A stretch of DNA of 64,000 nucleotides from Rhizaria sp. SCN 62-66. Taxonomy: Eukaryota. Made by a program: the position numbers and the translations under genes. Below, piece by piece: positions 25,486-64,000 of this stretch (the first letter of the stretch is position 1; each line of letters starts with the position of its first letter). Under the pieces are notes generated by a model. The model was not told where the DNA came from. It made no database searches and saw nothing but the letters and a program-made list of their open reading frames with translations. The stretch covers positions 1 to 64,000 of the forward strand of contig MEDY01000024.1 in assembly GCA_001724265.1 (NCBI GenBank). Direction: 5' to 3'.

Positions 25486-26053
25486 ATGCACAGAGTAACA
25501 AGACCTCGCGGCTGTTGTCTGAGAGGCGTAGACGGAAAGAGAAGAGAAGGGCTGCGTCAGGGCCGGGAGCAAGGGGAGACGGGAGACCGTGGTGCGGCGC
25601 TCGTCTGCAGCGAAATCAAAAATGGATGGAGGGGGCGCAATCATTAGTCTAATACTATATTGCTCAAATATTGTGATATTAAGTATGAAATATAGTTCAT
25701 TCCTCACGCGCGCTACCGGTTACGGAAGTTGTGAAGCTGTTCATAACTGCGAAGTGAGGCGCAAATAGGGTGGGGGCATGCGATCTGCATGTGGCTGCGT
25801 ACGCAACCAAAAGGCAACATGTGGCAAGCATATGCCTTGTGGAATGCATTAGAGTGTAAAACTTGAATACGCTACCTTTCAATATGATGTATGCAGTATA
25901 TCGATGTTTTTCATCGTTCAGAAATTGAAATAGTGCTTTGTATCGTTTGGAGACGTAAGGCGCCGTCGCTGTCACATCTGCAACTAACATTGAAAACGTG
26001 CGTATAAAACGCCATAAGTAAAGTCTAAGTAAAAGTAAAGTATAGTAAAGAAA

Positions 26054-36521: not shown

Positions 36522-39229
36522 ATGAGTAACGAACCGCACTTGCCCGTCGTGCCCCTCCCCGAGGTGGTGAACCTGGCCCCCGGCATGACCCGTCAGCGCA
36601 CCAACGGCCACTTCTCGCCCCTCGTGTCCCCCTACATCGTTCCTGAGCACAACCCCACGAACCCTCTCTCGCCCAACGACGCGCTCATCCTCGAACCCCA
36701 CGTTGAGGCCGCCGAGCCCGTGCTTGCCGCTTCCCCGTCTGGCGGCCTCACGGGCACCAGCGACCTCGTCACCGGTCTCGCTGACGACTTCGCGTGGTTC
36801 AACCCGCGTAACCTCAACTCGCGCGCGCGGTACAACTTCCTCGCCCAGCTCGCGTCCATCTCACCCCTTGCCGTCCCACCTACGGCCCACGAGCGCACGC
36901 GCAAGACCGGCATCATCTGCACCATCGGCCCCAAGACCAACTCGCCCCAGGTATGCTACAAGAGCCAGTGAGCTTCATATCACTATGTTACCATACTGTG
37001 TATTTGTGCTTTTTTCATCTAGATCGATCGCGTTGTTCTTGAAACTATGCTCTGCGTCTTGTTTTCAAGTCTTTTTCAGTCAATCACTCACTTTTCCCGT
37101 CTCAATCGCCCTGTTTTCTTGTTCTTTCTTTCTTGTGTGACTGACAGGCAATCGCGACCCTGCGCAAGGCCGGTATGAACGTGATGCGCCTCAACTTCTC
37201 CCACGGCACGTACGAGTACCACCAGTCCGTGATCGACAACCTCAAGGCATCTTACGCCATCTGGCCCGGCCCCGAAGTCGCCGTCGCACTCGATACCAAG
37301 GGCCCCGAGATCCGCACTGGCCGCACCGTCAACGACGCCGACGTGCCGCTCGTCACGGGCGAGGAGCTCACGCTCTCCACGGACAAGGAATGGTTCGACA
37401 AAGGCTGCGCAACGTGCATCTACGTCGACTACCAGAATCTGTCCAAGGTTCTCAAGATCGGCTCGTTCATCTACGTCGACGACGGCCTCATCAAGCTCGA
37501 GGTCACCGCTATTGCCGGCACCACCGTCACCACCAAGATCGTCAACGGCGGCCTCATCTCCTCCCGCAAGGGCGTCAACCTCCCCGGCACGCCCGTTGAC
37601 CTGCCTTCGGTTTCCGAGAAGGACAAGAACGATCTCCGCTGGGCCGCCGAGCGCGGCATCGACTTCATCTTCGCCTCGTTCATCCGCAATGCCGCCGCCA
37701 TCCAGGTACGTAGTGTTCACTATTACAACTGCGTTGATGTTATATCATACTTTGAGTGATGTTATTGATCAGCTTGTAGATGTGGTTCTGGTTTATAAAA
37801 GCAATCGCTGGCTTCGCTCTAGTTCGAGATTCAATTACCATCATCGCCATATCTCACTTCTTGTATTCTATTTTTAAACGAATTTGTATGTTGATGCTAT
37901 GATATACTTGATGCGCAACAGGAGATCCGCGACGTGATGGGCCCGGCTGGCGCGCGCACGCAGATCATCGCCAAGATCGAGAACCAGCAGGGTCTGGACA
38001 ACTTCGACCAGATCCTCATCGCCACCGACGGCGTCATGGTGGCGCGTGGCGACCTGGGCATCGAGATCCCCGTCGAGAAGGTCTTCTTGGCGCAGAAGAT
38101 GATCATCGCCAAGTGCAACATCCTCGGCAAGCCCGTCATTTGCGCCACGCAGATGCTCGAGTCGATGACCACCAACCCGCGTCCGACGCGCGCCGAGGTC
38201 TCGGATGTCGCCAACGCCGTCATGGACGGCGCCGACTGCGTCATGCTTTCCGGCGAGACCGCCAAGGGCAACTTCCCCGCCGAGTCCGTCGCCATGATGC
38301 ACACCATCTGCAAGGTCCGTCAAGTGAAATCGCTGAACAACGAACTTATAAATGACTAAAACACGCTTTATAATGTATCTCTTGTATATCGCACACGTAT
38401 AATCTGAATACGCACAATAACGCAAAGAACTGTGTAATCTATCGGTATTCCTAAATTCACTTTGATCATGATAATTCTGTTGTCATATGTATCTCCTCCA
38501 TTCTAACATAACTCCCTTGCTCTCTTTTGCTCTCGACTGACACTGCTCTACAGGAGGCTGAGTCCGCCGTGTCGAACAACGCGCATTACCGCGCCATCAC
38601 GGACATCCACCCCGAGATGTTCCAGACCTCGGAGACCCTCGCCGGCTCGGCCGTCAACGCCGCCTTCACGCGCTCGCTCAAGGCCATCATCGTCTTCTCT
38701 ATGACGGGCCGCACCGCGCGTCTCGCGGCTAAGTACCGCCCGTCGTGCCCCATCATCTGCGTCACCACGGACCCCATCACCGCCCGCCAGAGCTGCGTAC
38801 GTCGCCTTTATCATCACGCTGCCCTCGCAATATTATTGAAACAAGTGTTGAGCTTTGACTAAAGTCGACGAGAGGTGTTATTGTGATTTATCGACAATAT
38901 CCGTCTTTCATGTAACATGTGTTGCATATGACCTCAAATCTCACCTATTCTTCTCTTTTTTTTCTTTGTTTTTTTTTCTTATCTACTGATTTGTGTATCC
39001 TTGCGCTGTCCAGATGTCTCGCGGCGTGTACCCCGTGCTCGTCAAGGAGGCCTTCGACGCCAACAGCATGACCTGGCTGTCGTACATTGAGCGCCAGCTC
39101 CAGGCCGCCGTCGAGTGCTGCATCGACGGCCCCATCCAGATGCTCCAGCAGGGTGACGTTTGCGTCGTCATCCACGGCTGGGCCGGCGGCCGCGGCCACT
39201 CCAACACCATGCGTCTCATCGTCGTCTAA
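36522..39229 (+). CDS. PYK: Pyruvate kinase, 612 aa, five exons
   Basis: Exons 36522-36950, 37148-37705, 37922-38314, 38554-38796 and 39014-39229, all introns phase 0. Motifs [75 protein letters not shown] and SNTMR are intact. Confidence 0.97.
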
Positions 39230-40218
39230 GCGAGTCTAAGCGACGGAGTCTAAGTGTCGGTTGGAGTGCCAAGGATCTAAGTAGTGCTTGCGCATATGGA
39301 TGCGGTTTCATGCAACACAACAACGCAGTGTATCGGTGTCATGTGGGCTTACTCATGTGATCAAAGCACCACTAAACTGTTCTGCGCTGCTGTCTGTTGT
39401 ATGTTAGTTTGTTAGTTGCTGCTGCTGAAAATAGGCAAAGAGATCCAAACAGAACAATTGTTGTCGCCTGTTACGTCTAAGTTTAGTAATAATGTTGTTG
39501 TTATTATCGAATTTTACTCATATTTTTGGTTTTAATCACACTCGAACACACACATACGCCACGTGCGCACACGCTCACATGTACAGGGTATAAGAATAAC
39601 ACTAAACAATCGCCTCAAAAGCAAATTAGTTTGACTATGACTACATGATACGTATAATACAAGGTTTATATTAGCATATCACTCTGAACCCCCCAGATTC
39701 ACGCCTGTGACAACCTAGGTAAATAACGGCGACCTAGCTTGTGTTGGACTTAAAAGAGAGTGGTGCCCTCTTGATATCGTGCAAACCAGTAAAACAACAA
39801 AACGAGGACATCAAGGGCATCAGTGAAAGTATAACATGCACACATAAGCTATAATTCATAGGAATTGCTTTCAGCGCTTTTGTTTCTTGTGGGAGTGAGT
39901 GAGATGTAAAAGAGGAACTGTTACGCATGAGTTCCGGTGACTGGGTACGAATACAGTGTCTGAGTCTTCTCCTTCCTTGGCGAGAGGCCAAATAAATGGT
40001 TGGCTACAGTGCAACACAGTCGTCGTGTAAAACGCTGATGTTGAATTATATACATCAGATTTCTTTTAATAGCACAACTTGCTAATAACACCCCCTTAAT
40101 ATAACTAACAACCGTGTGATTCACGTCCTTCCTTCCCAGCTTCAGTAACAGCTATCTTGCCTCGTCGGCTCTCTCTTCCACCCTACATTGTGCGTCGCGA
40201 CCGCGCCCCCGTCGCATC

Positions 40219-43200
40219 ATGTCGCGTCCCGCGGCTTCTTCCAAGCCGAATCCGTCGCGCTCCTTGCGCCAGCAGTCCTCGTCATTTCTGCTGCCAGCAA
40301 ACGATGCTTCCTCGCACTACCCGTCATCGTCAGCCTCCGGGCTTAACAGCCTCGGCGGCCCCGGCGCAGGCTCCAGCTCCTCCGCGTCCTCGGCGGCGAT
40401 GCTGATGTCCCTCCGCGCGCTTCCGCCCGCGGCCGCGGCCGCCGCGGCTGCTGACTTTGACGGCGCCGTGAGCGGCGAGATCGCGACTCTGATCGCGCAG
40501 GCCTCGAGCCACAGCCCCGGCGGCGTCGGGAGCCTTGGCGCCGCGCTCCCCGGAGCCGGCGTCGGCGCCGGCGCGCGCAACAGCGAGGCGGTTATCTTGT
40601 CCGAGCTGGAGGCCGCCGGCGCCGCCGTCACAGCCGGGTTTGCGACTGTGGCCGAGGCCGTCGCTGCGGGGGTCGTGTCGCCGAATGCGCTCAACGCCAA
40701 CGCGCGCAGCAAGCGGAACAAAGGCGTGAAGAATGTGGCCCGCCGCCGTCGCCGTGAGCAGCAGCAGCAAGAGCAGCAGCAGTTCAACGGCGCTGATATC
40801 GGCGACATCAATATCAGCGATCTCGACGCCGACAACTACTACGACGACGACAGCGACGGCGCGCCATTTGACGCCCTCCAGAACAACAGCAACAGCGACA
40901 GCGACGGCGACGGCGACGGCAACACCAACAGCGACGACGACGGCGCTCCCGCGGGCTCCGGCGGCTGCGGTAACAGCAGCAGCAGCCGCAAAGCCAAGGG
41001 GGACAAGAGCGGCGCGCGCCCCCGCTTCCTCCCCGCGCCGGTGCTAAAATCCCTCTCGCTGCCGCCGCCGCCACTGCCGCACCAGTCTGCCGCCGCCTCG
41101 GGCTCCGGCGCCGCCGCCAGCGCCCTGGGCAGCGCCAGCGCGCTCGCCGCGGCAGCCGCGAGCGGTGGCGGCATGACCGCGGCCTCGGCCTCGGCGGCGG
41201 CGCGCGACCGCCGCGCGCTGCTCGTGGCCGCCGCCACGGCGTCGCTGACCGGCGACGCGTACGCCGCCGCGCTGGCCGCCGCGCGCGCGCGCCACGCGCA
41301 GGAGCGCCGCGCCACGGCCGCGCCGCTGCTGTTCCTGGGCTTCGACGGCGAGCCCATCGCGCCGGGCTCCGCGCTCGAGGCGCTGCTCGTGTGGTATATC
41401 CGCAGCAAGCCTGCGCTGTGGGGACACGCGCTCGCGCGCGTGTGGAGCGACGCGGAGCCGTTCCACGTCGATCTGGCTCAGGCCGCGGCCGCGTTCGCGA
41501 CGACGGCGAGCGTGGCGACTGTCGCGGGCATGGCGGCCGATTTCACCACGAACGGAAACGGAAACAACGGCAGCGCGAACGTGAATGGCGGCAATGGCGC
41601 CGGCGCTGGCTCTGGTAACAGTAGTTCTGCTGCGAACAACGGCAGCACTATTAGAAATAGCTTAGGCAGTGCGTTCGAGTACTATAGCCAGATTGTGTCC
41701 ACGCAGTCGCATGCACAGACGCAACAGATTCTTTCGCTTGCGCAAGAGCAACAGCAGCTGCAGCAGCAGCAGAATGGCAGCAACACGAGCTCTAAAACGA
41801 ACTTTGCGTCAAAAAACGGCGGCAGTAGCGCGCCGATCAGTCGGAAGCATCGCGGCAACTTGGCCACTGCCGCTGCCGTCGCATTGGCGAACCTCGCAAC
41901 ACCGCAAACCTCTGCAACTGCTTCTGTCAACACGGACAACGCGAATCTGAGCAGTGCCAGTAGTAGAAACTCGGTTAACACCGCTGTGTTGGCGATAGTT
42001 CCTCCACCGGCAACTCTCACCCCCGTCCCTGTCTCGGCCAACCCCGTAGCGGCGTCTAAGTATCCCCTCAGCCCCAGCAGCAGCAGTGCCTTCTCTAACA
42101 GTACTCCTAGCGCTGGTGCATACCCGAGCAACGAGACCGCCGCGGCAGACGCGCTCGCACATGCGACGGCGACTGCCGCTGCCACTGCCTACCCCGCCCG
42201 GCTCGTGGCCGCGGCGGCCGAGGTCGGGGCTGCGGCCGCGCCCGCGGTGCTCGTAGCCGCTGCCGCGGTGGCCACGGGGGCGCCCGTGGCTGTGACCGTG
42301 GGCGGCACGGGTCCCGCGGGTTCCCAGGCGACTGCGAAGCGTGGTTCTGGTGTCGGTTTAATGGACAACTTGAGCAGCAGCAGCAGTAGCCAGCTGCGCC
42401 TAGATCCGTCTAAGGGCCACTTAGACGCGGCCTCGCAGACGGAGCATGAGCGAGAGCAGGAGCAAGCGCAGGAAAGCAAGACTGACACCGCCAACGCTGG
42501 CAGCTACAGCAATAGCTGCAATAGCAACGGCGTCGTGCTCTTCACAGTTGGCTTCACGCCAGTGGGCTACTCGTGGTCGCCACCCTTGCCGCCACAGCTT
42601 ACCCACTTGCACCCCGCGACCGTGCCCCTACACTCCGCCAACAGCGGCAGCGGCAGCGGCGGCTACCAGCAGCAGCAGCAGCAGGAGCAGCAGTTGCAGC
42701 AACAGGGCGGCTACTACGACGCCTCCAGTAGCGCCAACGGCGGCGCGGCGCGCATCGCGAGCGTCGGCGCTGCGATGAATCTAAGGGGCGTGGGCACTTA
42801 CCCGCACAACTGCCGCGCGCAGGCGCTGGGCTATCCCACCGTCACGCACCACCAGTCGCTGCCCGCCATCGCCACGAGGCTCGCGCAGTTCGCCCCGGCG
42901 GCGGTGCAGTCGCCCGTACAGTCGCTTTACGGTGGCGCCAACAGCTACGCCAACGCAGACTCTCTCTCGGGCTCGGGCTCGGGCGCTGGCTCGGGCGCTA
43001 AGGGCAGTGGCACCGGAGTCGGCGCTGTCGGCGGCGGTGCTCCCGCCGCCGCCACCGCTGCGGCCGCCGCCACCGCCGCTGCCTCCGCCGCGGCTTCCGC
43101 GTGCGCGCCCGCCGCCCCCGCGGCCGCTGCCGCCGCGGGCGCCGCCGCCGCCGTCACACTGCTCGCGGTCGCGGCCTCTGCGCGGCCCCCCGTCGTCGCC

Positions 43201-46200
43201 GCCGCGGGCTCCCTCGCCGGCAGTGGCGGCGGCGGCGGCGGCGGCGGCGGCGCTCTCGCGCTGGGCGGCGGCGCAGGCTCCGGTGCGGGTGCCAGCGCGG
43301 GCGGCGCGGACGGGGACGACTGGGTCACGCAGGCCGTGCTGGGCAACAAACCGCGCGCGCGCCGCCGCGCCGCCGCCGCAGCCGGCGCTGGTGGTGCCGG
43401 CGGCGGCGCCGCCAGCGGTGGGAATGCGGGCGCGAGCGGCGCTGACGCGGACAGCGCTGGCCGCAAGGCTGCGCTGCCGACCGCGGGCAGCACCGCGAAC
43501 GGCAGCGGCAACGGCGGCGGCAATGGCGGCGCTGGTAAGAACGGCAGTGGCAACAAGGGCAACGCTAGCGCCGGCCAGAGCGGCAGCGCGAGCCGCGTCG
43601 CGCTGTACGCGGCCGGTCTGTCGCAACCGCCTCTGCTGGCCGCCGCCGCGGCCGCCGTGACCGCGGGCGCGGTGTCGCTGATGCCACGCGCAGCCGCCTG
43701 CCCTCTCACCTCTTCCTACCAAGCCGCCCTGAACAACAACAGCAACAGCGGCGGCGGGTCAAACGGCGGCGGCGGCAGCGGCGTGAGCCCCGCGGCGCCG
43801 TGGGCCGTGCTGGCGCGCGTCGCTCCCGCCGCCGTGCTCCGCTGCGACGTCCGCCCGCTGCTGGCCGTGCTGTCGAGGCGCCGCGGCGGACTTGCGGCCG
43901 CCGCGGCGCTGGCCGTGGCCCCTGCGCGCGCCAAGGAACGCGTGACCGCAGGCGCCGTCGCCGGGAACGCGTTCAAAGGCGGCGCACGCGGCGGCAGAGG
44001 CGGCGCGGCGGCGGCGATGGTGCGCGGGAGGCACGCCAGGCACGGGTCAATCTTACCGCTTCTCGCGCCCGTGGCGGCGACGTCGGCGGCAGCGGCAGCG
44101 TCGTCGCTGAGGCAGTCTAACAGCGGCAGCAAGCCTGACGGCGACGCGAGCGACGCCGACAGCGACGCCAACGACGCGGGCGGCAGCAAAGCGACAGGCG
44201 CAGACGCGAGAGACGCCGCGAAGAGCGCCGCGACTGCTGCTGCTGCTGCTGCTGCTGCTGCAAGCGGCGGCGACGACAAGCAGAAGCAGGACCAGGAGCC
44301 CGAGCCGCAGCAGCAGCAGCAGCAGCGCGGCCGCCGGCGCCGCAGCACCGCCAACTCCGGCTCGCTGCTGCTCTCGTCCTCGCGCCTCACGCCCGTGCCG
44401 CTGGCGCTGGCGCATCCCTTGGTCCGCGCTTCGGCCGCCAAGGCGCTGGCGGCCGCGCTCTCCCCGCTGCCGCCCCCGGCTCCCTCCCACGGCGGCGGCG
44501 GCGGCTCCGGCGGCGGCCCCAGTGCCACCGCCGCGGCCGCCGCAGCCGCGGCCAGCGCTGCGATGCACAACAACGCGTACAGCAGCGTGAGCGATCACAG
44601 TGCGGTCGGCGCGGTCGCGGCGGCAGCGGCCGTGGCAGCGCTGGCGTCGGTCTCCGCCACCGTCGCGCCGCTGTCGCGCGCGCGCGAGTTCGCCGTGGCG
44701 TCAGCCGCGACTGTGCGCTCGCTGACACGCCGCGCGACCAGTCTGAGCGTCCCTTACAGCTGCGGGCTCAGCGCGCAGGACGGGACGAGTCTGAGTACCC
44801 CCTTAGTCTCAGGACTCAAGCCGCCGACCGTGGGCCAGGGTGTCCTCGCGCGCCGCTACACCAGCCAAAGCGGCGGCCACGCAAGCAGCGGCGGTGGCAG
44901 CAGCACCAACGGCGGTAGCAGCGGCAGCAGCAGCCACAGCAACAGTCGTGGTCGCGGCGGCCACGGCAGCGTGTTGACGGCGGCGGCCACGGCGGCGGCC
45001 AACTCCAACAGCAGCCTTGTCGCGACCGCGGGCGTCAACGGCAGTGGCGGCGTCGGCGGCTGCGACTGGCTGTTCCTGTCGCCGTTTGTGACGCCCGACG
45101 GCGCTGGCGTCGGCGGGCCTGGCAGCGCGAGCTACTGCGGGCTTTTGCCCGTCAGCTGCGGCTACGCAGGGCTGCTGACGACGGAGCAGGAGGACGAGGA
45201 GGAGGACGACGACGAGGACGAAGACGGCAGCAACAGTGCCAACAACCAGGCACTCCCGCAGCAGCAGCAGGAGTTGGCGAAGAGCCCGAGTGCCAGCCTC
45301 GTCTCCTCTCCCGCGAACGCCGGCGCGGGCAACGCGAGCGCGCGCCTCGCCTCCAGCCCGCGCGCCGCCGACAGCGTCCCCCTCCCTGGCCACACCGGCG
45401 GGAGCGGCGCTGCGATGGTGGCGACATCGGTGACCGCGACGGCGCTCGCCGCGGCGGGCGCTGCGCTGACCGCGCTCGGCTGGGGCTCGGCGCACGGCCA
45501 CTTGCTCACGATCGCCCCGCGCGACGCCTTCGCCACCAAGCTCTACAGCAACAACAGTAATAGCAATGGTAACAACCACAACAACAGCAGCATGAGCGCG
45601 ATGGCGATGGCGAACTTGCATGTGCGCTCCGTCACACTCACGGTCGACAGCGCCTTGTCGCTGCTCGCGCCGTTGCCCTCCGCCGCCGCCGCGGCCGCGC
45701 TGTTCCCCCGCGCCGCGACTCACGCGCTCGCGTCGCCGGCGCTCTGGCGGCCCTTCGCGCCCCTGCCTGGCGCCGCGCTCGCGCACGCGCAGCTCCTCCT
45801 CAGAGCCTCCTCTTCCGCCGCCGCCGCCGCTGGCAATCAGTTCCCCGCCGACGTGAGCGGTGCCGACAGCGCTGCCGGCGGCGCGCGCGGTGGGCGGGCC
45901 GGGGTGTGGAACCCGGCCGCGTGGGCACGCTTCCTCGCCTCCCCGGCCGCGCCCGCGCTCTTCCAGCGGCTCATCGTCGTTGCGCACAGGCAAGTCCTCG
46001 TCTCGGCTGCCGCGGCCACCGCGCGCGCCGCCGCCGCGGGCGAGCTGCCCGCGCTCAACGCCAACGCCAGCACGGCCTTCGCGGTGGCGGGCGCGACCGG
46101 CGTGGTCACTGCGGACGATGCGCTGTCCAAGGCCTCATCGGCTTCGGCGGCCGCGGCGGCCGCGTCGGCGGCGGAGGCCGAGGCTGATGCTGAGGCTGCG

Positions 46201-49200
46201 GTCATGCGTCAGCAGCAGGGCAAGAACGGCAGTGACGGGACCATTGGCGGCAACTTTCATCTCCTGCACCTGAACGTGCATACCCGGTCCCGCGGCCCCG
46301 GCTCCCCGCCACACACCGCGGGGGGCGGCCTGACTTCCCCGCGCTCGGGCAGCGGCACCGGGCTCGCCTCGCCGCACGCGCACACGCACACGCGTAACTC
46401 GCCGGACCTGTCTCCGTACAGCCTGAGCCGCAGCGTGTCGCCCACAGCGGCGGCGGCGCCGATGCCGCTGGTGCTGCGGCGCGCTTCTGCGACTGCCGTG
46501 AGCATCGAGGGCGACGGCGACGCGCTGCTCTCCCCGCACAGCGACGACGTCGACGGCGACCCCGCGCAGAGCCACACGGCGCTGCAGCTCCAGCGCCAGC
46601 GGCTGCGGCGGCAGCAGGAGCAGCTCGAGCGCAGCCGCCGCCAGCCAGTGACGCGCGCCGAGTGGGCGCAGCGGCCCGCGCTCGCCGCTCTTATCGCCCG
46701 GCTCGGACTGGCGCCCGCAGTCGCGCTGGGCAGCGTTGCGCTCGCGCAGTCGCTGCCGCTCACAGTCACCGCGCCTACCAACAGCGCGGTCGCCGCACTC
46801 ACGCCCGCGGCCGCGGCGACCGCGGCCGCGGCGGCGGCGGCGGCGGCGGTCGCGGGCGTGTACAGCCACGGGCACGGACACGGGCGGGGCAGCGACTGGG
46901 ACAGCGACGATGACGACGACGACGACGATGACGATGATGACGTCGCCGCGGCCGTTGGAGCCGATGGCAAGCGCCGCCCCAGCGTCACGTCCTCGACCTT
47001 CGGCAGCGCCTTGGGCGGCAACCGCGGCTCAGTCGCCGGCGGCTTCGGCGTCGGCATTGGCCTCGGTTTCGGCGCCCGCAGGCCCGGGTTCGGCCCCGGC
47101 ACCATGGGTGTCAGCGTCGGCGCAGGCAGGAGCGCGAAGCGCGTGCTTGTCGAGCCCGACTTGCCCGGCCGCTGCATCTGGCTGCCGTCGTCGGTCGGCA
47201 CGTACGACCCTGCGTGCAGTCCGATCATCGCGCTGCCCACAATCGCGCACTCGCACGCGCACGCCCACGCGCAGGCGAACAACAACGGCAACGGGATGAG
47301 CGCGCGTGGGAAGTCTGGCGGTGTGAGCCCTCAAGCGCTGCACGGCACGAGCTTGCAGTCGCAGACAGTCGCGCTGTCGGGCTCGCAGTCGCTGTCGCAG
47401 GGGAAGCTAAGCCGCGTCCTGACCAACAGCAGCAGCAGCGGCATTAACAACGCCAACAGCACCGGCGCTCTGAACAGCAACGACGCGACGGCGACGCAGT
47501 CACGGCTGCCTGCCGCCACAGCGCTTGCAAACAGCAACAGTGTTAGCGACGACGGCAACACTTCGAACGGCGTCAACAGCGCCAGAGACGCCCTGGCCAG
47601 CGGCGGCACTGGCAGCGGGTTCGAGAGCGGCGAGGATGACGGCTCGTTCAGCGCGCTGCCGTCCCCGCGCGGTAGCCCCAGCCCCCGCCTCGCGAGCCCG
47701 AGAAACGGTGCGAGCGGCAGCAACGACGCCAGCAGCCTCAGGGAGGGCGCGTTCAAGGCGCGCCCGCAGCCGCCCGCGTCGTCTGGCTCTTCCCGCGCGC
47801 AGCAGCAGCAGCAACAGCAGCAGGCGCGGGCGCGCGCGCAGGCGCAGGCGCAGGCGGCGGCGCTCGCGCTGGCAGCGCCGACCCCCACTGCTGGGAGCAT
47901 GGGCCCCGGCTCCGCGGCATCCGCGTTCTTCCCTGCGCCCGCGAGCGCCGCCGGCACTGCCCATGGCGCCATCAGCGGCGCTAACGGCGGTGCGAGCGCG
48001 AGCGTGCCAGTGGTGCCCAGCGGCCCCGGCCTCGGCCTGCCCGCGCACTCGTACGCTGCGCTCCCGTCGCTGCCGCAGTCCTCTAACATTAACGCTAACA
48101 GCGGCGGCGGCAGCAGCAGCAGCGGCAGCTTCGCGCTCGCGCCGCACAGTGCGAGGACAGAGGGGTCCAAGTTGGCGCTTACATCGGCGCCCTCGGCCTC
48201 GTCTAAGGGCGCCGGCGGCCAGGGTAAGGGTGTGTTCAAGTGTTTGTCCTCTGCTGCACTCGCGACGGGCGCCGCGCTGGCCGCCGCCACCGCGTCGACT
48301 GCGGACCTGCTCCAGCTCCAGCATCAATCCTCGTCCTCGGCGCTCTCCCACCACGCGGGCGCGGGCGGTCTGGTGAGCAGCAGTAGCAGCTACAGCAAGC
48401 TGGGCGGCGCCGCTGCCTCGGCCTCTGTCGTCGCCGCCACCGCTGCCTCCGCGGCCTTCGCCTCGGCCTCGGCGGCCTCGCTGCCCCCGTCGCCGCTGCT
48501 CTCGGGCCCCGGCGCCGGTCTGCTGCTCTGTGAGGCCTTCGCGGCGCTGTGCGAGACCGTGATCGCGGCGATGCCCGGCGCGCTCGGGCCCGTCGTCACG
48601 CTCCCCAGCCCCGTCGGCGCCGCCTCCACCAAGCCGAGTGCAAGTAACAACAACAACGGAAGCAATCATGCTAGCGCGAGCTCTGGCTTCAACGCTCGTC
48701 CCAGCACTGGCGCGGATTATAGTGACAGCGCGAATGGTTTAGCCTCCGGTCTCGGTGCGCTAGGACTGGGTTTCTCTGTCGCGCTCGACGTCACGCACCA
48801 CCCCGTCGAGGGCGTCTACACCGTCAGGCTGCACCGCGCGCCCTGGGCCGCGCCCACGGTCAACATCCACACAGCCGCAAACACGGCCATCTGCTCCACT
48901 CCGCCCACAGCTCCCGCCGCGGCCACAGGCGCCGTCTCGGGGAGCGCAGTGCACAACACCAGCGCGCTGTGCTTGGTGCCGTCACTACTGTCCTTCGCCC
49001 CGTCGCTGCCTCTGGCGCCGACGCTGCTGCCGCTGCTGCCGCCGCTGACGCTGCTGGCGCTGGCCCGCGACCGCAGTCTGCTGCCCGCCGTGCGCGCGGC
49101 GGCCTGGCGCGCGCTGCCCTCGCAGCTGCGCGTGCGGGAGGCGCTGGCCGCCGCAGCCGCAGTCGCTGCCGTCGCCGCTGCCGACGCGGCCGCCACCGCC

Positions 49201-52200
49201 GTGGCCGCGGGCGCGAGCGCGGCGGCGGGCCGGATAGGCTACGGCGGCCAGGGCCAGGGCCAAGCGGGGATGCGCGGCAGCGACGCCGGCGGAGCTGGCG
49301 GGAACATGATGGTGCAACATAGCAACGCGTCGATGATGGCCGCAAACTACAACGGCAACGCCAGCAGCAGCAGCAGCAGCAGTAGCAGCGCGGGCTCTGG
49401 CTCGAGCGCCGGTCACGGCGGCAGCAGTCTGACTGCGAACGCGGGCGCAAGCGCGGCCGTCGTGCGGGGCATTGTAGCTGCGGTGCCTGCGCTGTCGTTC
49501 GTCACGCCCGCGCTTGCGCAGCTGCCGCCATCAATCGTCGCCGCCGCGCCCGCGCTCGTCGCAGCCTCCGCGGCCGCGGCGGGCGGCACGTACACGGTCG
49601 AGGAAGGGACTTACATCGAGGGTGCGAACGCGCTCGACACGGCTCTGCTGCTCGCACTCGCGACTTCGCCTGCGACGGCAACTGCCAAGAGCAACAATGT
49701 GAGTGCGAACGCGGTTAGTAACGGCGGCGGTGCGCACAATCAGTCGACCCCAGCTCTCATTCCGCCGTTGCTGCAGCAGTCTCAGTCTCCAATCCTGTCT
49801 CATTCCCAGTCACTCGCCCAGTCACTTGCGCACTCTCACTCCCAGTCGCAGACATGGGCCCGCGCGCAGGCGCTTGCCCAGGCCAACACGGCGCTGTTCT
49901 ACTCCGCGTCGCCGCCCACCTCCGCCGCTGCTGCCGCCGCCACCGCGGGCGCCGCGGCGGGGGCCGGAGGGACGCTGCTCACGGCCGCAGACCTGGCCGC
50001 GATCGCGCAGGCTGCCACCGGCAAGCCCGTCAATGCCACGGCGAGCGAGAACAGCGATGACTTTGATCACACTGCGACTGGCGCCAGTGCGAGTGTCGGC
50101 GTGGGCGTGGTTAGCTCCAGCCCGTCGACGGTGGTCGGCGGCCGCGGCGGGCATAGCTACGTCGTCGTCGCGCGGCCGCACTGCCCGCTGTCGCTGCTCA
50201 GCAGCAATAGCCATAGCAACGCCAATCTCAGCAGTAGCGGCCTCCATCACAGTCAGCCGTCAACAGCGTCGGCGGCGGCGGCCACAACGACGTTTGTCGC
50301 GCCCCGCCCAGTGCCCGTCTCCGCGTCGAGCTTCGTGAACAGGAGCAGCAGCAGCAACAACGGCAGCAACGTTACCTCGAGTGCCGCAGGCGTAGGCGCG
50401 AACAACGCGAATGTGAGTGCGAAGCAGCAGATGATGTTGCTGCACGGCCATCGCCGCGCGAGCCTTAACAGCACCAGTAGCAGCGCCGCGGGCAGTATCG
50501 GCGACGACGACGAAGATAGCGACGTCGAGCACTTCCCCCCGAAACCGCAGCCGCAGCAGCAGCCGCTGCAGCCGTCGGGCGACGGTGAACAAGGGCCCGG
50601 CTCCGGCAAGCTGCTCAGCGTGCTGCCCCCCGTTACTGTTGTCGTCGCCGTGAACACCTCGGAGGGCGACGCGGACTCAATGCCTGATAATGGCATTCAC
50701 ACCAGCAGGCGGTCCAACACCGCCAGCAACCACTCTTCTGCGCGGGACAACTCAAGTGCTGCTGTGCGCCCCGCAACTTCGTCTAAGGGGGTCCTTACAA
50801 CGCCGTTCCTCACCGAAGTCGCGGATCCCGACGACAACGATGGCAACACCGGCGCAAACGGGGCTGCGAACACTCGTTACCACAACCATCACGCTCCTGC
50901 CTCTACGGCGGCAGCTGTGTCCGCGCCTGTCGCTGTAGCTGTGCCGGCAAGCTTCAAGCTGACAACGTATCAGGACCCGCAACGCTGCTTGTCGCTGAAC
51001 GACATCGCCAACGTGCAGGTACGCATATTTTATACCTAAAATGCAATCAAAAACGAGCATCACATCATTTATTGCGCTTATTGACACGTATAATTTGAAT
51101 AATTTCTTCGAAGTTCTTTCGATGCCTTTATATTAATACCTCCTCATCTCTCACTTTTGACTCATCCCTTCTTCCTCATTCCGCTCACTTCGAATCTTAG
51201 GCCCAAGCCCGTGTGTATGCCAAACAGCCCCCGCGCTTCGTCTCTATCCTCCGTGCCGCCTTCGCCGGCGACCTCCTCTTGCTCAAGGCCCTGCTCGCCG
51301 CCGAAACCAGTCTCCACATGGCTCTCCACGCCAACAACCCTGGGAATATGGCTAAGTCCTCGAGTGCCGGTGTCTATGGCGTGGACGTGAACGTGCTCGC
51401 GCGCAAGCCCAAGGCCTCGAGCTCGCTGCCCCCCGCCAACCCGCCCGCCCCCGCGATGCCGCCTTCCCTCGCAGCCCTGCAACAACAGCAGCAGTTGGGC
51501 GGTGGCGGCGCGGGCGCGAGCCCGAGAACGCGCGCCGCCGCAGCCGCAGCCGCCGCGATGGCCGCCTACGCCGCCGCCTCGGCCGCCTCGGCCGCGTCCG
51601 TCACCCCCGCGCCCCCGCAGCTCCCCTCAAGCTCTTTGTCGACCGCCGCCTCCGCCGCTGCCCTCAGCCACGTGCACGGCATGAGCGGAGGCAACGCGCA
51701 GCTGCAGCGGTGGGACCCGCGCACGGCGTGCGAGTGGGCCGCGCTCAACGGCTTCCCGCTGACCGCGCTGCTGCTGCGCGCGTACGGAGGGAAAGTAGGA
51801 CCTGTGCCCGCCGCGCTGCTGGCACTCAGGGCGGACAAGTTTGTCGTCGCGGCGCCCGGTGCGGCAGCCGCGGCCGCGGTCGCGGCGGCAGAGCGGCTCG
51901 CACTCGTGCAAGCCCAGGCGCAGGCGCAGGGACAGGACCAAGGGCAGCAAAAGGGCAATCAACACCAACAGCAGCAGCTGCAACAACAGCAAGTGCCCGC
52001 GCTGTTGCCACCGCTGGCCAGGATGCAGATGCCGCCGCAACCGCAACCTCCTAGTGCGCTCATCAGCAGCAGCGCCGCCGGCGCGGGATCGTTCGTCAAC
52101 CTCGCCAACGCGCTGACACACTCCAGCAGCAAGCAAGCGCTCCTGACGACGACCTCAGCAGCAGCGGGCGCGAACAGCTCGAGCGCTAGCGGCAGCGGCA

Positions 52201-53270: not shown

Positions 53271-54440
53271 TTAGTCAGTCTTCTTGCTGCTCGTCGCCTT
53301 CTTCACAGCCGACCCGGGGGCCGCCTTAACAGATGCAGAAGCCTTACTGCTCTTGCCAGCGGCGGTGGCGGCGGGCTTCTTGCCCCAGTAGAGGAAGATC
53401 TGCGCGAGAACGATGGCGTTGAGGGCGAACGCGAGCAGGAACGAACCCAGGATCACTACGTCGTCCACCTCCTGTTATTACAATACACAAACAAAATGCA
53501 GTCAAAAGCAACAGAATATGAAAGGAAATGAGAGATAGCATTCTTGATTAGAGATAAACCAGTTCAAAACACACATAATTGTTACGTCGTAACAATGAGG
53601 CGTGATATATGCCTCTAAAAGCGCGTTTTAGTGTAATTTAGAAAGGAGGAAAGGATTTGGATGAGGGCGTACCTGGAGGGTGGTGAAAATGCGGGCCGCG
53701 CACCCGCCGGTCTGGAGCACGGTGGTGGCGAGCGAGAGGATGCCGGTGGACTTGGCGGCGAAGTTCTGCGCGATTTGCTGCACGCGAGACGACATGGACG
53801 TGAGGACGGAGACGGCCATGAGCGCGGGCAGCGCGGCGGGGGGCAGCGACAGGAAGATAGCGACGGCGGCGACGGCGGCAGCGACGGTGACGGCCTTGTG
53901 CTTGGCCGAGGTCGCCGCGAAGCGCCAGCAGAGGGCGACGATGATGCAGTTCTGGACCAGGATCACGAGCGCCTCGGCGTAAGTGCTCAGGGGCGTACCC
54001 GTGAGGAGGTTGTAAGTGCTCGTGGCGGCGTAACTAAGCGTCTCAAGGTAGAGCGCGGAGAGGATCATGCCCTCGGCGGACTTGGCGCGGAGGATGTTGA
54101 TGATCTGCGGCAGCTTGAGCAGGAAGGAGCCCGCGATGATGCCGTAGCCGAGGCCCTTGGAGATGGCGAACTTAACACAAGCCGCGTCGAGGCGCAGGTC
54201 GGTGAAAATGGCGGTGTAGCAGGCAGGAGGGAGAATGCCGAGGAACAGCGGGCCAGAGAGGTCAGTGACGCCGACCTTGGCTACAGTCGCGGTCGCGGCG
54301 GCGGCGGCAGCGGCGGCGGGGGCGGCGGCAGCGGCAGAGTCGGCGGCGGCAGTGACGAAGGAGAGGCAGAGGCTGAGGAGGGAGGCGAGGAGAAACAGAG
54401 CCGGCGCGGCGGCCGAGAGAGCCGAGGACAGACGACTCAT
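53271..54440 (-). CDS. MPDU1: Mannose-P-dolichol utilization defect 1-like PQ-loop membrane protein, 322 aa
   Basis: Exons 54440-53673 and 53471-53271. ACVKFAISKGLGYGIIAGSFLLKLPQI..ILRAKSAEG, KSTGILSLAT..LQTGGCAARIFTTLQE and LAQIFLYW match MPDU1/Lec35. Ends in KKTD, a KKxx ER-retrieval signal. Confidence 0.92.
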
Positions 54441-54853
54441 GCTCTGTGCAGTGATCAGAACGAGGAGCAAGAGTGATGACAGGCAAGCGAAGACATAGGT
54501 GAGGATTTGAGCGATGCTAAGACACGCCATTAGCGGCGTTGTATGCAAGCTGTGAAGGTTTAAAAAGAGTATAGTGACTAAAACATAACACAGACCCGGT
54601 AATCGTTGCATTTATCGCGAACAACGGTTGTTGCAAACGAACAGAGATTGACGAAGAAGAGCAGCGTCAGCAAGTGGCTCGGCGGATTTCGGCTGGCTCG
54701 CTCCGACGGAGAAGACTAACTCGCTAGAACTGTATCTCGACGAAACGTCCGAGAACCGCGACACAGGTCAACTCCACATTTGTCCTGTTAGTTTCTCGCA
54801 CTAATCCTTTTTTATACTGCGTAGTGTCGTATCTGTGACGTTCTGCACTCCGA

Positions 54854-56502: not shown

Positions 56503-56752
56503 GTGAGGGACTGTAATCAACGCCTGTGAGCAATGACTGCGAGTCTCAGCGCACAATAATGTGAAACAGCAAGGTCTTTGTTAGGGCTTTGTTTGTGATA
56601 TCTAAGGTATATAGTGGGCTGATATGGGGTTATTTATGTTAAAATTGATGTTAGTATATCAAAATACACACGAATGTGTGAAGTTTAAAGTTGAGTCAAT
56701 TTATTTTCCACGAGATATGCGTACGTTTCAGTGAAATACAGAGGCGTGACCG

Positions 56753-56762
56753 TTTGGCGCGG
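56753..56762 (+). promoter_or_regulatory. E2F-consensus site (TTTGGCGCGG) about 290 bp upstream of the TopoVIB-like ATG
   Basis: Exact match to TTTSSCGC in a short spacer ahead of a DNA-metabolism gene. The motif is short and could be chance. Confidence 0.3.
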
Positions 56763-57047
56763 TCGGTGGCGGAAGAGAGGGGGGTCTGACGATTGGTTTT
56801 GAACACTCGGAACTTCTCGCTCAATAGATCGTCAATAGAATATATAACTCACACTCCGGATTTAAACACGCGATTTAACTTATTTCTTTTAAACGTAGAC
56901 CTTGCAACAAACTCTGTCGTGAGATCTACTTTGCAGAGTAGGCCCTCAGAAACACTCGCGATCGCGCGGGACCACGGTCAGCAACCCACTTTGATCCCCT
57001 ACACAGCTAGCCGAAAACTTCGTGATTGCGAGTGATACAGCGGCACG

Positions 57048-58047
57048 ATGGCCTCTACTGCCGTCCCCGGTGGACTGGTTGCTCTGCGCGCGCTTGTGTC
57101 AGTGTTTCTGGACATTCTCGACGCACGCCACATCCCCCCCACTCTCAACATCACCATCACTGGCCATCCCGGAGGCAACAGCAGCAGCGGCAGTGGCGGC
57201 GCAGGCGTGAACCCGAGCATTGTGGACGCGATGGCGCGGGCCGGCAAGAGGCCGGCTGCACTGCCAACACCGGACAACAGTATTCATACCAGCAGCAGCA
57301 CCACCACCAGCAGCAGCAGCAGTGCAAGTGGAAGCGCAAGTGTCTTGGCGGCGAAGCGTGCAAAGCCTGCAAATATCAGTGCAGCCACAGCAGACTCCGA
57401 CTCGGACTCGGTCTCTCTCTTACACAGCAGCAGCAACAACAACAACAACAACAACAGCGCTGGCGGTGGTTCTCAACATAAGTCTGCTGCGGGCGGAGTG
57501 ACTGTGGGCGGAGTGGCTGTGAGCGTCCTCATCCCCGGGTACGCGCTGAGTGAGACAGAGGCCGCGTTTCTCGCCAACCCCGTCGCCATTGCGGCCAACT
57601 ACACGAGTAGCAGCAGCAACAACAGCGGCAGCAACATTGACAACGCAAGTTCTAGCGCTGGCGGCAACGGCCGAGGCTCTGGCACTGGATTCGCTCTGCC
57701 GCAGTCGCGGTCTGACGGCGTCATGCGCACGCCGACGCACACCAACATTAACATCAACAACAGCGGCAGTAGCAACAACAACAACACTGCTGCGGGCACT
57801 GGAGGTCAAGGGAACAGGCAGATCGCGCTTGCGCAATCGCCGGGCAACTCAAACTGCAGCAGCGCGAATACCACCAGCTCCAACAGCGGCAGCAACAAGA
57901 GTAGTGGTAAGGGCGCAGTTGCTGCTGGTGTTGTAAGTGGCGGCGGATGCGGCTTAGCTTTGGTGCCGAACCCGTGGTACTTGCATCAGAGCCGCTACTT
58001 GTCCCCCTTACACGTGGCTGCCGCCATCGCCACTCTTGCGCAATCAA

Positions 58048-58081
<34 letters not shown>

Positions 58082-61000
58082 GTCATTATCGTCGTCAAGC
58101 AGCAGCATCAACCCGAATAACAACTCCAGTTCAAGCTCTAGCGCGAGTGTGTCTGCCAATCATACTGCGAGTGCAAGTGCTCAGTTGAAGCTGTTTGTCG
58201 CTGCTGTGACGACGACAGCGTCCATCGTCCGCCACTCGATCAAAGTCAAGCCGCCCACTTACACGAGTAAGGGTGCGGGCAGTCGGGACGCGAACGCGAG
58301 CGCAGCGGAGGTTGTGGCGGCCGCGGCAGCAGGTGTGCCACTGTCTGTCGTCACAGCTCTTACTACCAACGCAAGCGCTCTACCAAACAACAGCGACAAC
58401 ACTAGCGGCGCACACGTGACCGCGGGTACTGCCAGTGGCTGTGAGGTGACTGTGAGCAGGGGTCCCAGGCCGGCGTCGCTGCCACTGGGGACTGTGGGCA
58501 CCGAGGTGGCCTACTATTGCGCGACTATGGCCGAGGCAGGGGCTGCAGGCAGGAACAACGACTGGGAAGCTATTGTCGTACGTTTGACAGCAAAAAATCA
58601 CAAACGGTATAGATGACATCAATATCATTGATAGAATGGACAGCTCTAAAATGTTGCATGCCTGAGCAGAGCATTTCTTTTCACTTCATTTCGCGAACTT
58701 TCAATGCTTTTTGTACTCGCTTCTCACTTCTTGTTTGTTACTCTCTGCTCTGCTTCTGATTGCTGACTGTGCGTACTTTCTGTGTACAGTCGCACGCGAG
58801 CTACTTAGTCCGCCTCTTTTCTCTCTCCGCACCACACGCGGCCCTTACACTTACACTTGTCCCCCCTAACGCTAGTAGCAATGGTGGCACTAATCCAAGT
58901 GCGGGTGGAGTTGTGGTGTTGAGGCTGCCGCGGCTAGCGCTGCCTCCCCGCGTCCCCGCCTCGGTGCTGGCCCACCCGTCACTGCTCTACTGCTCTGCCC
59001 ACGGTCATTCCGCTGCTCACGGCTGCTCTGCCGGTCAGAGCCAGAGTCTGAGTCGCAGCAACAGCGAGGTGAGCAGTAGCACTCGCGCTGACGATTATTA
59101 CGGTAGCGGCAGCGACGACGGCGACGACAATGACAGCGACGACGGCAATGACAGCACTGGCAGCGACGATGCTGACACAAGGCGTCTAAGTACCCCCTTA
59201 CGCCCCGCCGCACCCTTAGACGGCCTTCCCGGGCGGTTCTTAGCGTTGCTGCTCCAGAACACCAATACGCTGACTTTGCACGCACTGTTGACGCGTGATT
59301 TCACTGGGATCAACGCCAAAGCAGCGACTGCGATCATCGATGCTCTCGGTACGTAGCCCAGTCGACATCTATTATTGTTTCCCTGTTTTGTCTTCTGAAG
59401 TATGTTTTCAATTCAATACCAACGCCACACCACACATCTCACGTTTTCATATTTCTCATCTCTTGCTTTTGGTTGGTCCGCGCGTCCACTCAGGTGGCGG
59501 CTTCGAGCCCGGAACCGACCTGAGGGCTCTCTCGCAGACGCGTCTCCAAGAGCTCGCGCTCGGGCTCGCCGCCGCAGCCACGACAACCGCAGCTAATGCG
59601 GTTAATGCGGTCACTGCCGCTGCAAGCGCTGCGGCGAGCTCGAAAACAGCTGCGACGAGTGGTGCTGGGGTCAAGGCGATCGTGGCAGCGGCAGCGGCGG
59701 CGGCGAGCGCGGCGGCGACGGTACGTCGACGCATCAACACTTCTAGCAACTTACATCGAGCCAACCTCTTTCGTTGTAGAAATGAACAACAATGTTGAAA
59801 CACTGTTGAAACATGATCTGATAGGATATTCTCACACCGCGATTTTCTTACAGTAACACACGCACTTACGTTTTTCATGATTTTTTTTTACTTCGCGTAG
59901 ACTCTGGCGCCGCTTGGTGAGTACAACCTCAGCACCGCCCTCCACCTCCGTCTCCCCACTCCGCCACAGGTCCCCGTACCCATGCCGCCCACGGTTACTG
60001 GCAGCGCGCAGCCCACGGTCATCACAGTCACTTCGACGTCTGACCCATTTCTGTACCGCGGCGGCCCCGCTCTTGTCGAGGTCGCGCTCAATGTTACCCG
60101 CGGTGTCGCGGCCGGGGCTGGCGGCCTCTCACTCTATCGGTACGTGTGCCTGCTAGCGCCACCTCGAGTGCGACTTAGCTTTCACATGCACTTTAAAGGC
60201 ATGAACTGCAAAATCAAATCCTACAGTATCCATCGATTTATCACAATTTGTACTCGTTTCAATTTCCCATTCTTACAACCGAATATTGTGCGCGTATTTC
60301 TTGTTATCTTTTTTTTTTGTTTCATAGCTTCGTCAACCGCGTCCCGCTCTTCCCCATCCCGAGCGCGAGCGCTCGCACTGGCGCTCCCACTGAAGTGACC
60401 GCGGCTGCGGCCGCGGCTGCGGCGCCTGTTGTGACCGACGCCGCAGCTTCCGCGTTGCGTTCCCTCGTCCACGGGTCTCCTCAGACCGGGCCCTGGGCGA
60501 AGCTGGGCCTCACTGCGACTGACCGCGTGACCGTGGTCGTGGCAATGACCACTGCAGCCGCGCCGGCGCTCGCGCTCTCGGCAACTGCGGTTTCCCACAG
60601 CAATGCGAGTGCGAGATCAAGTGCAAACAATGTTGTTGGAGCTGTGAGCGAGCTGCTGGGAGTTGAGTACTCTCCTGTCACACTGCAACAAGACGGCAAC
60701 AACACTGTCACCGGTGATGCAGGACCAGGAGTACCCGCGGTCACGAGTATCGTACCCACAGTCAGCGTCGAGGTGGAGAAGGCGGTGCGGTTGTGTCTCA
60801 AGCGCTGTTGCAAGCAAGTCAGCCGCAAATTGTCGGTCGACGTTACGACTCCGACGTTCAACACAGCGTACAGGCAATCCGTCAACGGTAATGCGTGCGG
60901 TAGGGACCGCAGCGGCAGTCCAAACACAAACAGTAGCGACGGCGACGACGGTGATGAGCAGCTGAGCGTCTCAACCGCGAATGCAAGTACCCCGCACCTA

Positions 61001-61111
61001 CTTACACTGAACAAGCCGCGGCATATTGCACCCTTTGCGACGTCGTTGGACGCGTACTCGCAGCCGCCACCGGTAGTGTTCAGCAACGGCAGTCTTGAGC
61101 TGAACTACTAA
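57048..61111 (+). CDS. TOP6B: Divergent DNA topoisomerase VI subunit B-like protein (degenerate GHKL, H2TH, transducer), about 1112 aa, five exons
   Basis: Exons 57048-58577, 58790-59348, 59494-59720, 59901-60139 and 60328-61111; all four donors are GTACGT and the frame is consistent. Ordered similarities to Top6B: GTEV...NDW...SYLVRLFSLSAPHAAL, H2TH-like TLHALLTRDFTGINAKAATAIIDALG..FEP....ALSQTRLQEL, LAPLGEYNL, YRGGPALVEVAL, LYRFVNRVPLF, DRVTVVV and EVEKAVRLCLKRCCKQVSRKL. The start codon is uncertain. Confidence 0.8.
58048..58080. repeat. (CAT)11 microsatellite encoding poly-Ser (TCA) inside the TopoVIB-like gene
   Basis: Read directly. Confidence 0.9.
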
Positions 61112-63236: not shown

Positions 63237-64000
63237 TTAGTAAGAGCGGCCGTACATGATCCACTTGTCGACCTTGCCGCCGCACTTGATGCACGGGAAC
63301 TGGCAGGGGTCCTCGGCGGGCTGCTCGAAGGGGATGCAGAGACTCTTGGCGGCGCCAGTGAGGGGCTCCAGGCCGGGGGCGACACCCTCCTGCAGTAAAG
63401 AATGTACAGTAAGGCGAAACATGTGAGCGTATGAAACTAAAACTAAAAGATAACGTGAAAGTCACTAGAAAACATATTACAACATAGTACTTCCTTCATA
63501 TCACATCATCCTGAAGCAATATGTCAAGGAATGAAATATTCTTGATTTGATTCGTCTAGTTTCAGCGGATCACGTACCTGGTCGTCGTTGTTAGACTCGA
63601 GCGCGGCGAGCTTAACGGAGTCAATAGCGGACTGCTTCTTGACGTCCTGCTCGCACTGCGCAGTGCCGCAGTGGGGGATGACGGCGAGGCAGCGCTCGGC
63701 CAGCACCTTCATGAACTCGTCCCAAGTCTTGGCCGTCTTGATCGAGCCCAGGTGGGTGGTCTTGGCCCGCTCGTACATCTCAGTCTGGATCTTGGCCAGG
63801 AGCGCAGGCACGGTGGTGGCGAGGTCGGCCCACGCCACGGTGGTCTTCTCGCCAGTGTCGCGGCGGACGAGAACAACGACCTCGTTGGTCATGTCCTTGG
63901 GGCCCATCTCCATGCGCAGAGGCACGCCCTTGATCTCCCAGTGGTTGAACTTCCACCCGGGGTTGTAGTGCTCGGACGAGTCGAACTCGGTGCGGATGCC
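63237..64000 (-). CDS. proS: Prolyl-tRNA synthetase, eukaryote/archaeal type, 3' part (5' end outside window)
   Basis: Exons >64000-63578 and 63389-63237, intron GTACGT...CTGCAG. Anticodon-binding domain YNPGWKFNHWEIKGVPLRMEMGPKD and LVRRDTGEK; C-terminal domain AKSLCIPFEQP...CIKCG...YGRSY. Confidence 0.96.

Follow-up and report, generated by a model that had tools for sequence, protein, structure and literature searches.

The question raised by this locus is whether a B subunit of topoisomerase VI (Top6B) can lose its ATPase and still be kept as a working protein, and if so, how such a protein relates to the meiotic TopoVIB-like proteins. The gene in question lies at positions 57048–61111 on the plus strand of a 64,000 nucleotide (nt) stretch of contig MEDY01000024.1 (assembly GCA_001724265.1, Rhizaria sp. 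SCN 62-66), and this whole stretch is referred to here as the window. A first-pass annotation, made by eye from the letters of the window, had described it as a TopoVIB homologue with a likely dead ATPase and a retained H2TH module. We find that the spliced gene encodes a very diverged Top6B homologue, with a homology that is secure at the level of sequence comparison, in which the residues expected of an active ATPase are gone while the H2TH and the core of the transducer are kept.

A gene split over five exons

The gene emerges only on joining five exons, as the first-pass annotation had proposed. The exons, with the amino acids (aa) that they encode, and the introns between them are:

57048–58577, plus strand: exon 1, aa 1–510; degenerate GHKL-like region with long Ser/Asn/Ala/Gly runs; donor GTACGT at 58578
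58578–58789, plus strand: intron 1, 212 nt, GC 0.40
58790–59348, plus strand: exon 2, aa 511–696 and 1 nt more; last part of the GHKL-like domain (APHA, AHP), acidic/Ser-rich insert, first half of H2TH
59349–59493, plus strand: intron 2, 145 nt
59494–59720, plus strand: exon 3, aa 697–772; the other half of H2TH, up to 59570, followed by a linker rich in Ala
59721–59900, plus strand: intron 3, 180 nt
59901–60139, plus strand: exon 4, aa 773–851 and 2 nt more; first part of the transducer (APLGEY; RGGPALVEV)
60140–60327, plus strand: intron 4, 188 nt; its splice forms RFVNRVPL
60328–61111, plus strand: exon 5, aa 852–1112 and the stop codon; motif with the anchoring Asn, remnant of WKxY, position of the switch Lys, a single long helix and a low-complexity tail

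Joined together the exons give 3339 nt, or 1112 codons and a TAA with zero internal stops, and the interval runs exactly from the ATG to the TAA. All four introns (145–212 nt) begin with a GTACGT donor and end with a YAG acceptor after a pyrimidine tract, while the GTACGT hexamer shows no enrichment across the window (28 seen against 21.9 expected). The contig is GC-rich and eukaryotic, and its exons stand out sharply from the AT-rich introns and spacers (38–45% GC); in this gene the exons are 60–70% GC compared with 39–43% (0.39–0.43) for the introns. Alternative frames of the same DNA are interrupted every 40–150 codons, compared with 1112 open codons in the modelled frame. The open frame and the contrast in GC between exons and introns both argue against a long period of neutral decay. 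Ala, Ser, Gly, Thr and Asn are abundant in the spliced protein, which is 33% low-complexity; by the same measure six neighbouring open reading frames (ORFs) are 10–51% low-complexity, and this content is a genome-wide trait rather than a peculiarity of this gene.

The spliced 1112 aa protein was compared locally with a profile of seven archaeal Top6B genes, which were picked with PF09239 from five genomes reached by a 16S primer scan. The members come from Methanosarcina, Haloferax, a Sulfolobales metagenome-assembled genome (MAG), a Bathyarchaeia MAG and one Thorarchaeota MAG that contributes three paralogues. With this profile HMMER scored the protein at 28.2 bits (single-target expectation value, E, of 3.3e-11). 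The match falls into three domains in collinear order, which place aa 11–39 on profile positions 41–69, aa 661–721 on 246–304 and aa 812–860 on 337–384. Sliding windows gave 15.1 bits for the H2TH (aa 662–719) and 23.3 bits for the transducer block (aa 812–860), and added two weaker collinear segments at aa 367–399 and aa 995–1019 (0.3 bits), making five. An hhalign alignment placed aa 503–1110 on columns 188–544 (345 columns, Prob 95.4%, E 1.7e-8); it starts at aa 503 in exon 1 and crosses the exon 1/2, 2/3 and 4/5 junctions without a break. Within this aligned part, 27 of the 54 columns that are conserved in at least six of the seven archaeal proteins are identical in the window protein. An hmmalign alignment recovered only the local core.

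The exons taken singly gave much the same picture with hhalign: exon 1 matched with aa 8–40 on columns 43–75 (E 0.056), exon 2 with exon aa 149–185 on columns 250–286 (E 0.0026), exon 4 with exon aa 39–64 on columns 341–366 (E 0.0057) and exon 5 with exon aa 149–168 on columns 450–469 (E 0.053). The RFVNRVPL motif is created only by removal of intron 4, and this together with the unbroken alignment over the junctions gives independent support for the gene model.

It might be argued that a resemblance to Top6B could arise by chance in a protein with so much low complexity, and the single-exon searches of libraries and databases described below were all without a match. We give this explanation next to no weight. 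Of 2001 composition-matched controls (2000 copies shuffled within 40-residue windows and the reversed sequence) only 441 scored at all and the best reached 3.3 bits; the 28.2 bits of the real protein and the hhalign E of 1.7e-8 therefore put the likeness of the H2TH and transducer well beyond chance. In addition the five segments are collinear, and the motifs are completed only by splicing. The profile search of the spliced protein that the first-pass annotation had suggested as a check thus confirms its view that the H2TH and transducer segments are Top6B-like, although masking the low-complexity residues, suggested along with it, brought no gain.

Lost ATPase motifs and a retained core

The positions on which the comparison with Top6B turns are listed below. 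Residues of the reference are numbered after L126, a Top6B of Thorarchaeota MAG G003.

57087–57113, plus strand: N-box remnant RALVSVFLD (aa 14–22), in HMMER domain 1 and hhalign; weak alone, at the expected collinear place
57531–57548, plus strand: IPGYAL (aa 162–167), the earlier candidate for the G1 box; letters present, matched by eye, no profile alignment
59222–59348, plus strand: first part of H2TH (aa 655–696); E 0.0026 for exon 2 alone in hhalign, 15.1 bits in the HMMER window
60335–60337, plus strand: anchoring Asn855 in RFVNRVPL; R370, F371, N373, P376 and L377 of L126 all matched
60494–60496, plus strand: Trp908 of the WKxY position, which reads W-A-K-L, with Leu911 in place of the Tyr
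60731–60733, plus strand: Val987 at the switch-lysine column, by hhalign
60755–60832, plus strand: C-terminal transducer helix (about aa 995–1020); exon 5 hhalign E 0.053, 0.3 bits, DSSP helix 134–168 of the low-confidence exon 5 model

In GHKL ATPases the Glu of the ExxxNxxD motif is the catalytic base and the Asn is a ligand for Mg. Both HMMER and hhalign align the archaeal N-box consensus RELVENSLD with RALVSVFLD, so that the Glu is replaced by Ala15 and the Asn by Val19 while Asp22 is kept, which is how the first-pass annotation had read this segment. An alternative hhalign match covering the N-box spans aa 6–59 with an E of 0.12. The annotation had also reported no switch lysine, and this agrees with the alignment: the column of the invariant K424 of L126 falls on Val987, and the Lys of the adjacent PYK is a Ser. 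Further losses are His411 of the IHVCST strand and the AYGG loop. Met1 lies only about 13 residues ahead of the N-box helix, so the N-terminal strap is missing.

The G1 (DxGxG) and G2 (GxxGxG) boxes, which correspond to columns 75–125, were not aligned by HMMER, sliding windows, hhalign, a masked search or gap-tolerant chaining. The first-pass annotation had found no G2 box either, and masking brought no better detection of the GHKL part. Its suggestion that IPGYAL is the likely G1 fares less well, as the letters are present at aa 162–167 but no alignment supports the equivalence. Gap-tolerant chaining put a Gly/Ser-rich run at aa 46–67 (GSGGAG) on the G2 columns; this is a low-complexity run and equally unsupported.

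Taken at face value, a protein that has lost its strap, its switch Lys and both the Glu and the Asn of the N-box, with no detectable G1 or G2, would have an inactivated ATPase. As the catalytic Glu, the Mg-binding Asn, the switch Lys and the strap are missing and glycines of an ATP lid are not recognisable, ATP-driven dimerisation and strand passage would be very unlikely.

This conclusion depends on the gene model being complete at its 5′ end. If an unseen or alternative first exon supplied an intact strap and ATP-binding boxes then the gene would be a normal TOP6B. The short distance from the start to the N-box would fit such an exon, as would the region 56582–57163 that is without RNA cover. 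There is also a fifth GTACGT on the plus strand at 56721, directly after an ATG at 56717, which with a possible pyrimidine-rich acceptor near 56898 suggests a 5′ leader intron; if spliced, this intron would be about 178 nt, and the leader would hold an upstream ORF of about 47 codons that ends at a TGA 12 nt before the main ATG. That TGA is however in frame with the main ATG, and a same-strand LicD-like gene ends at 56502. When the whole 64 kb was scanned in six frames with the Top6B profile, no other Top6B-like piece turned up and nothing upstream matched profile positions 1–40, so the unrecognised upstream exon with an intact N-box for which the first-pass annotation had left room did not appear. 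Moreover the degenerate N-box and the switch-Lys column sit inside exons that the remaining alignment needs. We consider an incomplete gene model to be very improbable.

What has been kept is equally specific. The H2TH module (aa 655–722), as recognised by sequence profile, is identical to archaeal Top6B at six of eight conserved columns, and its length of 68 aa differs from that of Top6B by 2 aa, within a protein that is one third low-complexity. At the end of the GHKL domain the PHA and HP are kept, and in the transducer the PxG of the SPIGxE motif, the GxxxxVE and, in RFVNRVPL, the conserved residues R852, F853, N855, P858 and L859. The tail at aa 1021–1112 has no recognised feature.

The Thorarchaeota MAG G003 (Asgard) that supplies the reference carries three separate Top6B-transducer genes, L125, L126 and L127, with open frames of 518, 516 and 674 aa; in L127, the last of them, the N-box region is diverged.

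Transcription, relatives and the case for continued function

DNA that is near-identical to the gene was found in bioreactor, wastewater and activated-sludge runs from several studies, and the source is therefore an uncultured wastewater protist. The exon 5 ORF is recorded in six assembled public contigs, the longest of 132 kb (records P0001 and P0041, which are identical at 286 of 287 residues and differ in the start residue alone). The public protein collection that holds the exon 5 ORF does not contain the exon 1 ORF.

Four public runs were aligned to the gene: two of DNA (X1 and X2), one of cDNA (X7) and one polyA metatranscriptome (X5). The contigs described are those among the matches listed, and the RNA cover is thin, so that uncovered parts are uninformative. 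The DNA contigs of X1 and X2 continue through the introns unspliced. One X7 cDNA contig (record 29) joins 59347 to 59493, which is intron 2 as modelled, the junction being equivalent to the modelled cut because of a G on either side. A second X7 contig (record 27) breaks off at 58577, precisely where exon 1 ends, and 34 of its letters are unplaced. The gene is thus transcribed, and the intron 2 junction is confirmed by an RNA-derived contig. The sole difference seen among the four runs is a G to A at 60018 in one low-depth RNA contig; it would change a Val to Ile in exon 4 and could reflect either strain variation or an error.

A transcribed gene may still be a relic, that is a canonical TOP6B decaying without function as its lineage loses topoisomerase VI. 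Several observations would fit such a relic: every catalytic motif is gone, one third of the protein is low-complexity insert, the third-position GC content (GC3) is at the low end of that of the neighbours, the RNA cover is very sparse and in part unspliced, and no relatives that could show constraint were found among 1.84 billion representatives or in metagenome contigs. Against this, 1112 codons stay open over five exons with four consensus splice sites while the other frames are short, intron 2 is precisely spliced, and low complexity is found genome-wide. The motifs of the structural core and the length of the H2TH are also preserved, although the catalytic motifs have been erased. On balance we think a relic improbable. 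The survival of the frame, the four splice sites, the core residues and the H2TH length, despite erased catalytic motifs and free insertion of low-complexity sequence, suggests continued selection on a non-catalytic role.

The explanation that we favour, by a little over even chances, is a secondary loss of the ATPase in a transcribed, intron-bearing gene derived from topo VI-B, whose protein still works non-catalytically. In such a scheme the B subunit of this lineage would have lost its ATPase residues, strap and switch Lys, while the H2TH, as a DNA-binding module, and the β-sheet core of the transducer, including the anchoring Asn, would have stayed under constraint. ATP-dependent strand passage would most likely no longer be driven. 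The most economical role, and the one that we think probable, is that of a DNA-binding structural or regulatory partner, without catalysis, for the A subunit of a type IIB enzyme, be it TopoVIA or Spo11. The origin of the meiotic TopoVIB-like proteins would then have been repeated independently.

A number of results weigh against secondary loss with continued function. The first 500 or so aa match the profile at the N-box helix only, so that a GHKL fold for aa 40–500 is at best putative. The C-terminal stalk appears to have a single helix of about 25–35 aa (about aa 986–1020) followed by the low-complexity tail, and the helices that bind the A subunit are apparently not clearly conserved and look short in the model, which somewhat weakens the idea of a scaffold. 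The GC3 of the gene is 0.67, at the low end of the 0.68–0.84 of its neighbours. One X5 contig (58532–58863) spans the whole of intron 1, and others (59860–60097 and 60286–60519) include the ends of introns 3 and 4. Pfam gave no match for any exon, even at E 10, phmmer searches of the PDB with exons 2, 4 and 5 gave chance matches only and no Top6B, and exon 5 found only its own ORF record, P0001, among the 1.84 billion protein representatives. No related loci were found for exon 4 or exon 5 in JGI metagenome contigs. AlphaFold2 without an alignment gave a mean predicted local distance difference test (pLDDT) of 35.9 for exon 1 and 40.7 for exon 5, and both models are unusable.

As the X5 contigs retain intron sequence, part of the RNA evidence is unspliced RNA or DNA; intron retention, pre-mRNA or DNA carry-over could each account for it.

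Other searches were equally silent. The transducer family Topo-VIb_trans (PF09239) was not matched at E 10 by exon 4 or exon 5 alone, intron 4 splitting the domain, and exon 5 had no match among 5.8 billion clustered proteins in a search for longer proteins, nor in the ESM Atlas. The longer-protein search with profile A1 returned three long archaeal proteins and no eukaryotic TopoVIB or VIB-like protein, and with profile A2 (917–2615 aa) it returned 37 matches, all intein-bearing or long forms and none from a eukaryote; those with a source name are archaeal except for one from an Acidobacteria MAG. As introns break up each block that could be recognised, standard searches would miss genes of this kind.

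Many of the Top6B proteins of 1000–1300 aa (P0005–P0021 and P0033–P0040) carry intein and LAGLIDADG domains (PF14890, PF14528), and these too are archaeal where a source is named, bar the one Acidobacteria MAG. The Top6B of Nitrosocosmicus is long (940–1004 aa) without inteins.

No Spo11 or TopoVIA was found among the ORFs of the window that were scanned with Pfam (12 + 29, of 162 open frames of at least 140 aa). The further suggestions of the first-pass annotation, a meiotic partner of Spo11 and a possible marker of cryptic sex, find no support here. The other features of the window are:

344–6775, minus strand: BEACH/FAN-type protein with WD40; Atlas matches of its BEACH domain spread over various eukaryotic taxa
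16758–20945, plus strand: reprolysin-type metalloprotease with five thrombospondin type 1 repeats
21424–25719, minus strand: giant open frame of 1432 codons, no Pfam family
26057–33196, minus strand: giant open frame of 2380 codons, no Pfam family
37145–38356, plus strand: pyruvate kinase, in two frames and so probably intron-split
40120–51036, plus strand: giant open frame of 3639 codons, no Pfam family
53628–54611, minus strand: PQ-loop protein
ends at 56502, plus strand: weakly LicD-like gene, the upstream neighbour on the same strand
63527–64000, minus strand: C-terminal part of a prolyl-tRNA synthetase

The three giant open frames are 29–51% low-complexity (Ala/Ser/Gly/Asn).

Relation to the known B-type subunits

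Table 1 of Brinkmeier et al. 2022 (PMC9665070) lists for eukaryotic TopoVIB a strap, the N, G1 and G2 boxes, the H2TH, the anchoring Asn, the WKxY and the switch Lys. TOPOVIBL proteins always have a linker instead of the H2TH according to the same paper, and those that its table classes as GHKL-like have neither strap nor boxes, lack both the anchoring Asn and the switch Lys, and have only the Trp of the WKxY. A 2024 survey in NAR Genomics and Bioinformatics (PMC11302465) describes the H2TH as unique to topo VI-B and reports that ichthyosporeans, filastereans and choanoflagellates retain topo VI. By the account of both surveys, none of the VIB-like proteins examined has an H2TH.

The window protein resembles Top6B of known structure (2zbk_B, 2q2e_B and 1mx0_A, found by profile A1) in its collinear N-box helix, the end of its GHKL domain (PHA, HP), an H2TH of the same length and the order of the transducer elements, which runs PxG, GxxxxVE, RFxNRxPL with the anchoring Asn, Trp and a long helix. 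It differs from them in having no N-box Glu or Asn, switch Lys, WKxY Tyr or N-terminal strap, with G1 and G2 undetected, in being about twice as long through low-complexity inserts, and in a C-terminal stalk that is apparently short. With the GHKL-like TOPOVIBL/TOP6BL, MTOPVIB and Rec102 it shares the loss of the ATPase motifs, strap and switch Lys, the Trp of the WKxY alone and a strong divergence. Unlike these proteins it has an H2TH where they have a linker, and its anchoring Asn is kept. That family is marked by three helices that bind Spo11 and a C-terminal helix that binds REC114; of these hallmarks none was recognised in the window protein, apart from a weak match to the first long helix. 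Judged by its motifs the window protein fits neither class, as it combines the losses of a GHKL-like TOPOVIBL with the H2TH and anchoring Asn of TopoVIB.

One way to read this combination is that the gene is this lineage's orthologue of meiotic TOPOVIBL/MTOPVIB and has kept the H2TH, in which case loss of the H2TH would not be ancestral to the VIB-like family. The pattern of loss (strap, Bergerat-fold boxes and switch Lys, with only the Trp of the WKxY left) is the one given in the GHKL-like row of Table 1 in PMC9665070. The absence of the H2TH from the VIB-like proteins that the two surveys describe speaks against this orthology, as does the anchoring Asn, which is kept here and scored as absent from GHKL-like TOPOVIBL in that table. 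The archaeal Top6B profile still scores 28 bits, and a PDB search with profile A1 at E ≤ 0.001 found Top6B, Hsp90-type and histidine-kinase chains only, in a copy of the PDB whose content of VIB-like proteins was unchecked. We regard this orthology as unlikely. It corresponds to the evolutionary intermediate of the first-pass annotation, which had placed the protein midway between the two classes. That placement holds in so far as this is a Top6B homologue with lost ATPase residues and a kept H2TH that lies outside both published classes. The word intermediate does not carry over as well: given the reported absence of the H2TH from VIB-like proteins, a secondary, lineage-specific loss of the ATPase would be more parsimonious than a surviving intermediate, which is less likely.

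A comparable loss is described in PMC9665070 for the oomycete Albugo, whose TOPOVIBL no longer has the strap or the N, G1 and G2 boxes, although other members of its clade retain them. Compared by that description, the two cases are alike in that dimerisation strap and ATP-binding boxes were lost jointly in a single lineage while the transducer stayed conserved, and differ in that the Albugo protein belongs to the VIB-like family without H2TH. Judged by titles and abstracts, full-text literature searches listed no paper that describes an H2TH together with a dead ATPase, and this combination is unusual against the current surveys.

A bolder proposal is that an ATP-independent B-type partner for a Spo11 or TopoVIA nuclease arose here for a second time, independently, from a full topo VI-B and with the H2TH retained. 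We put it forward tentatively, as a possibility with the balance well against it. If it were true then the ATPase can be lost before the H2TH, and the rule that an H2TH means an active topo VI, and no H2TH a meiotic VIB-like protein, would fail in at least one protist lineage. The combination matters for the two surveys in any case. They separate topoisomerase VI from the machinery of meiotic breaks by an H2TH that is accompanied by intact ATPase motifs, and assign topo VI to protists on this basis, a rule that an H2TH with a dead ATPase breaks. If the protein is functional it would provide a natural test of the roles of the H2TH and transducer without ATP turnover, and would reveal in what sequence the parts of a type IIB B subunit are shed on the way to a cofactor of Spo11.

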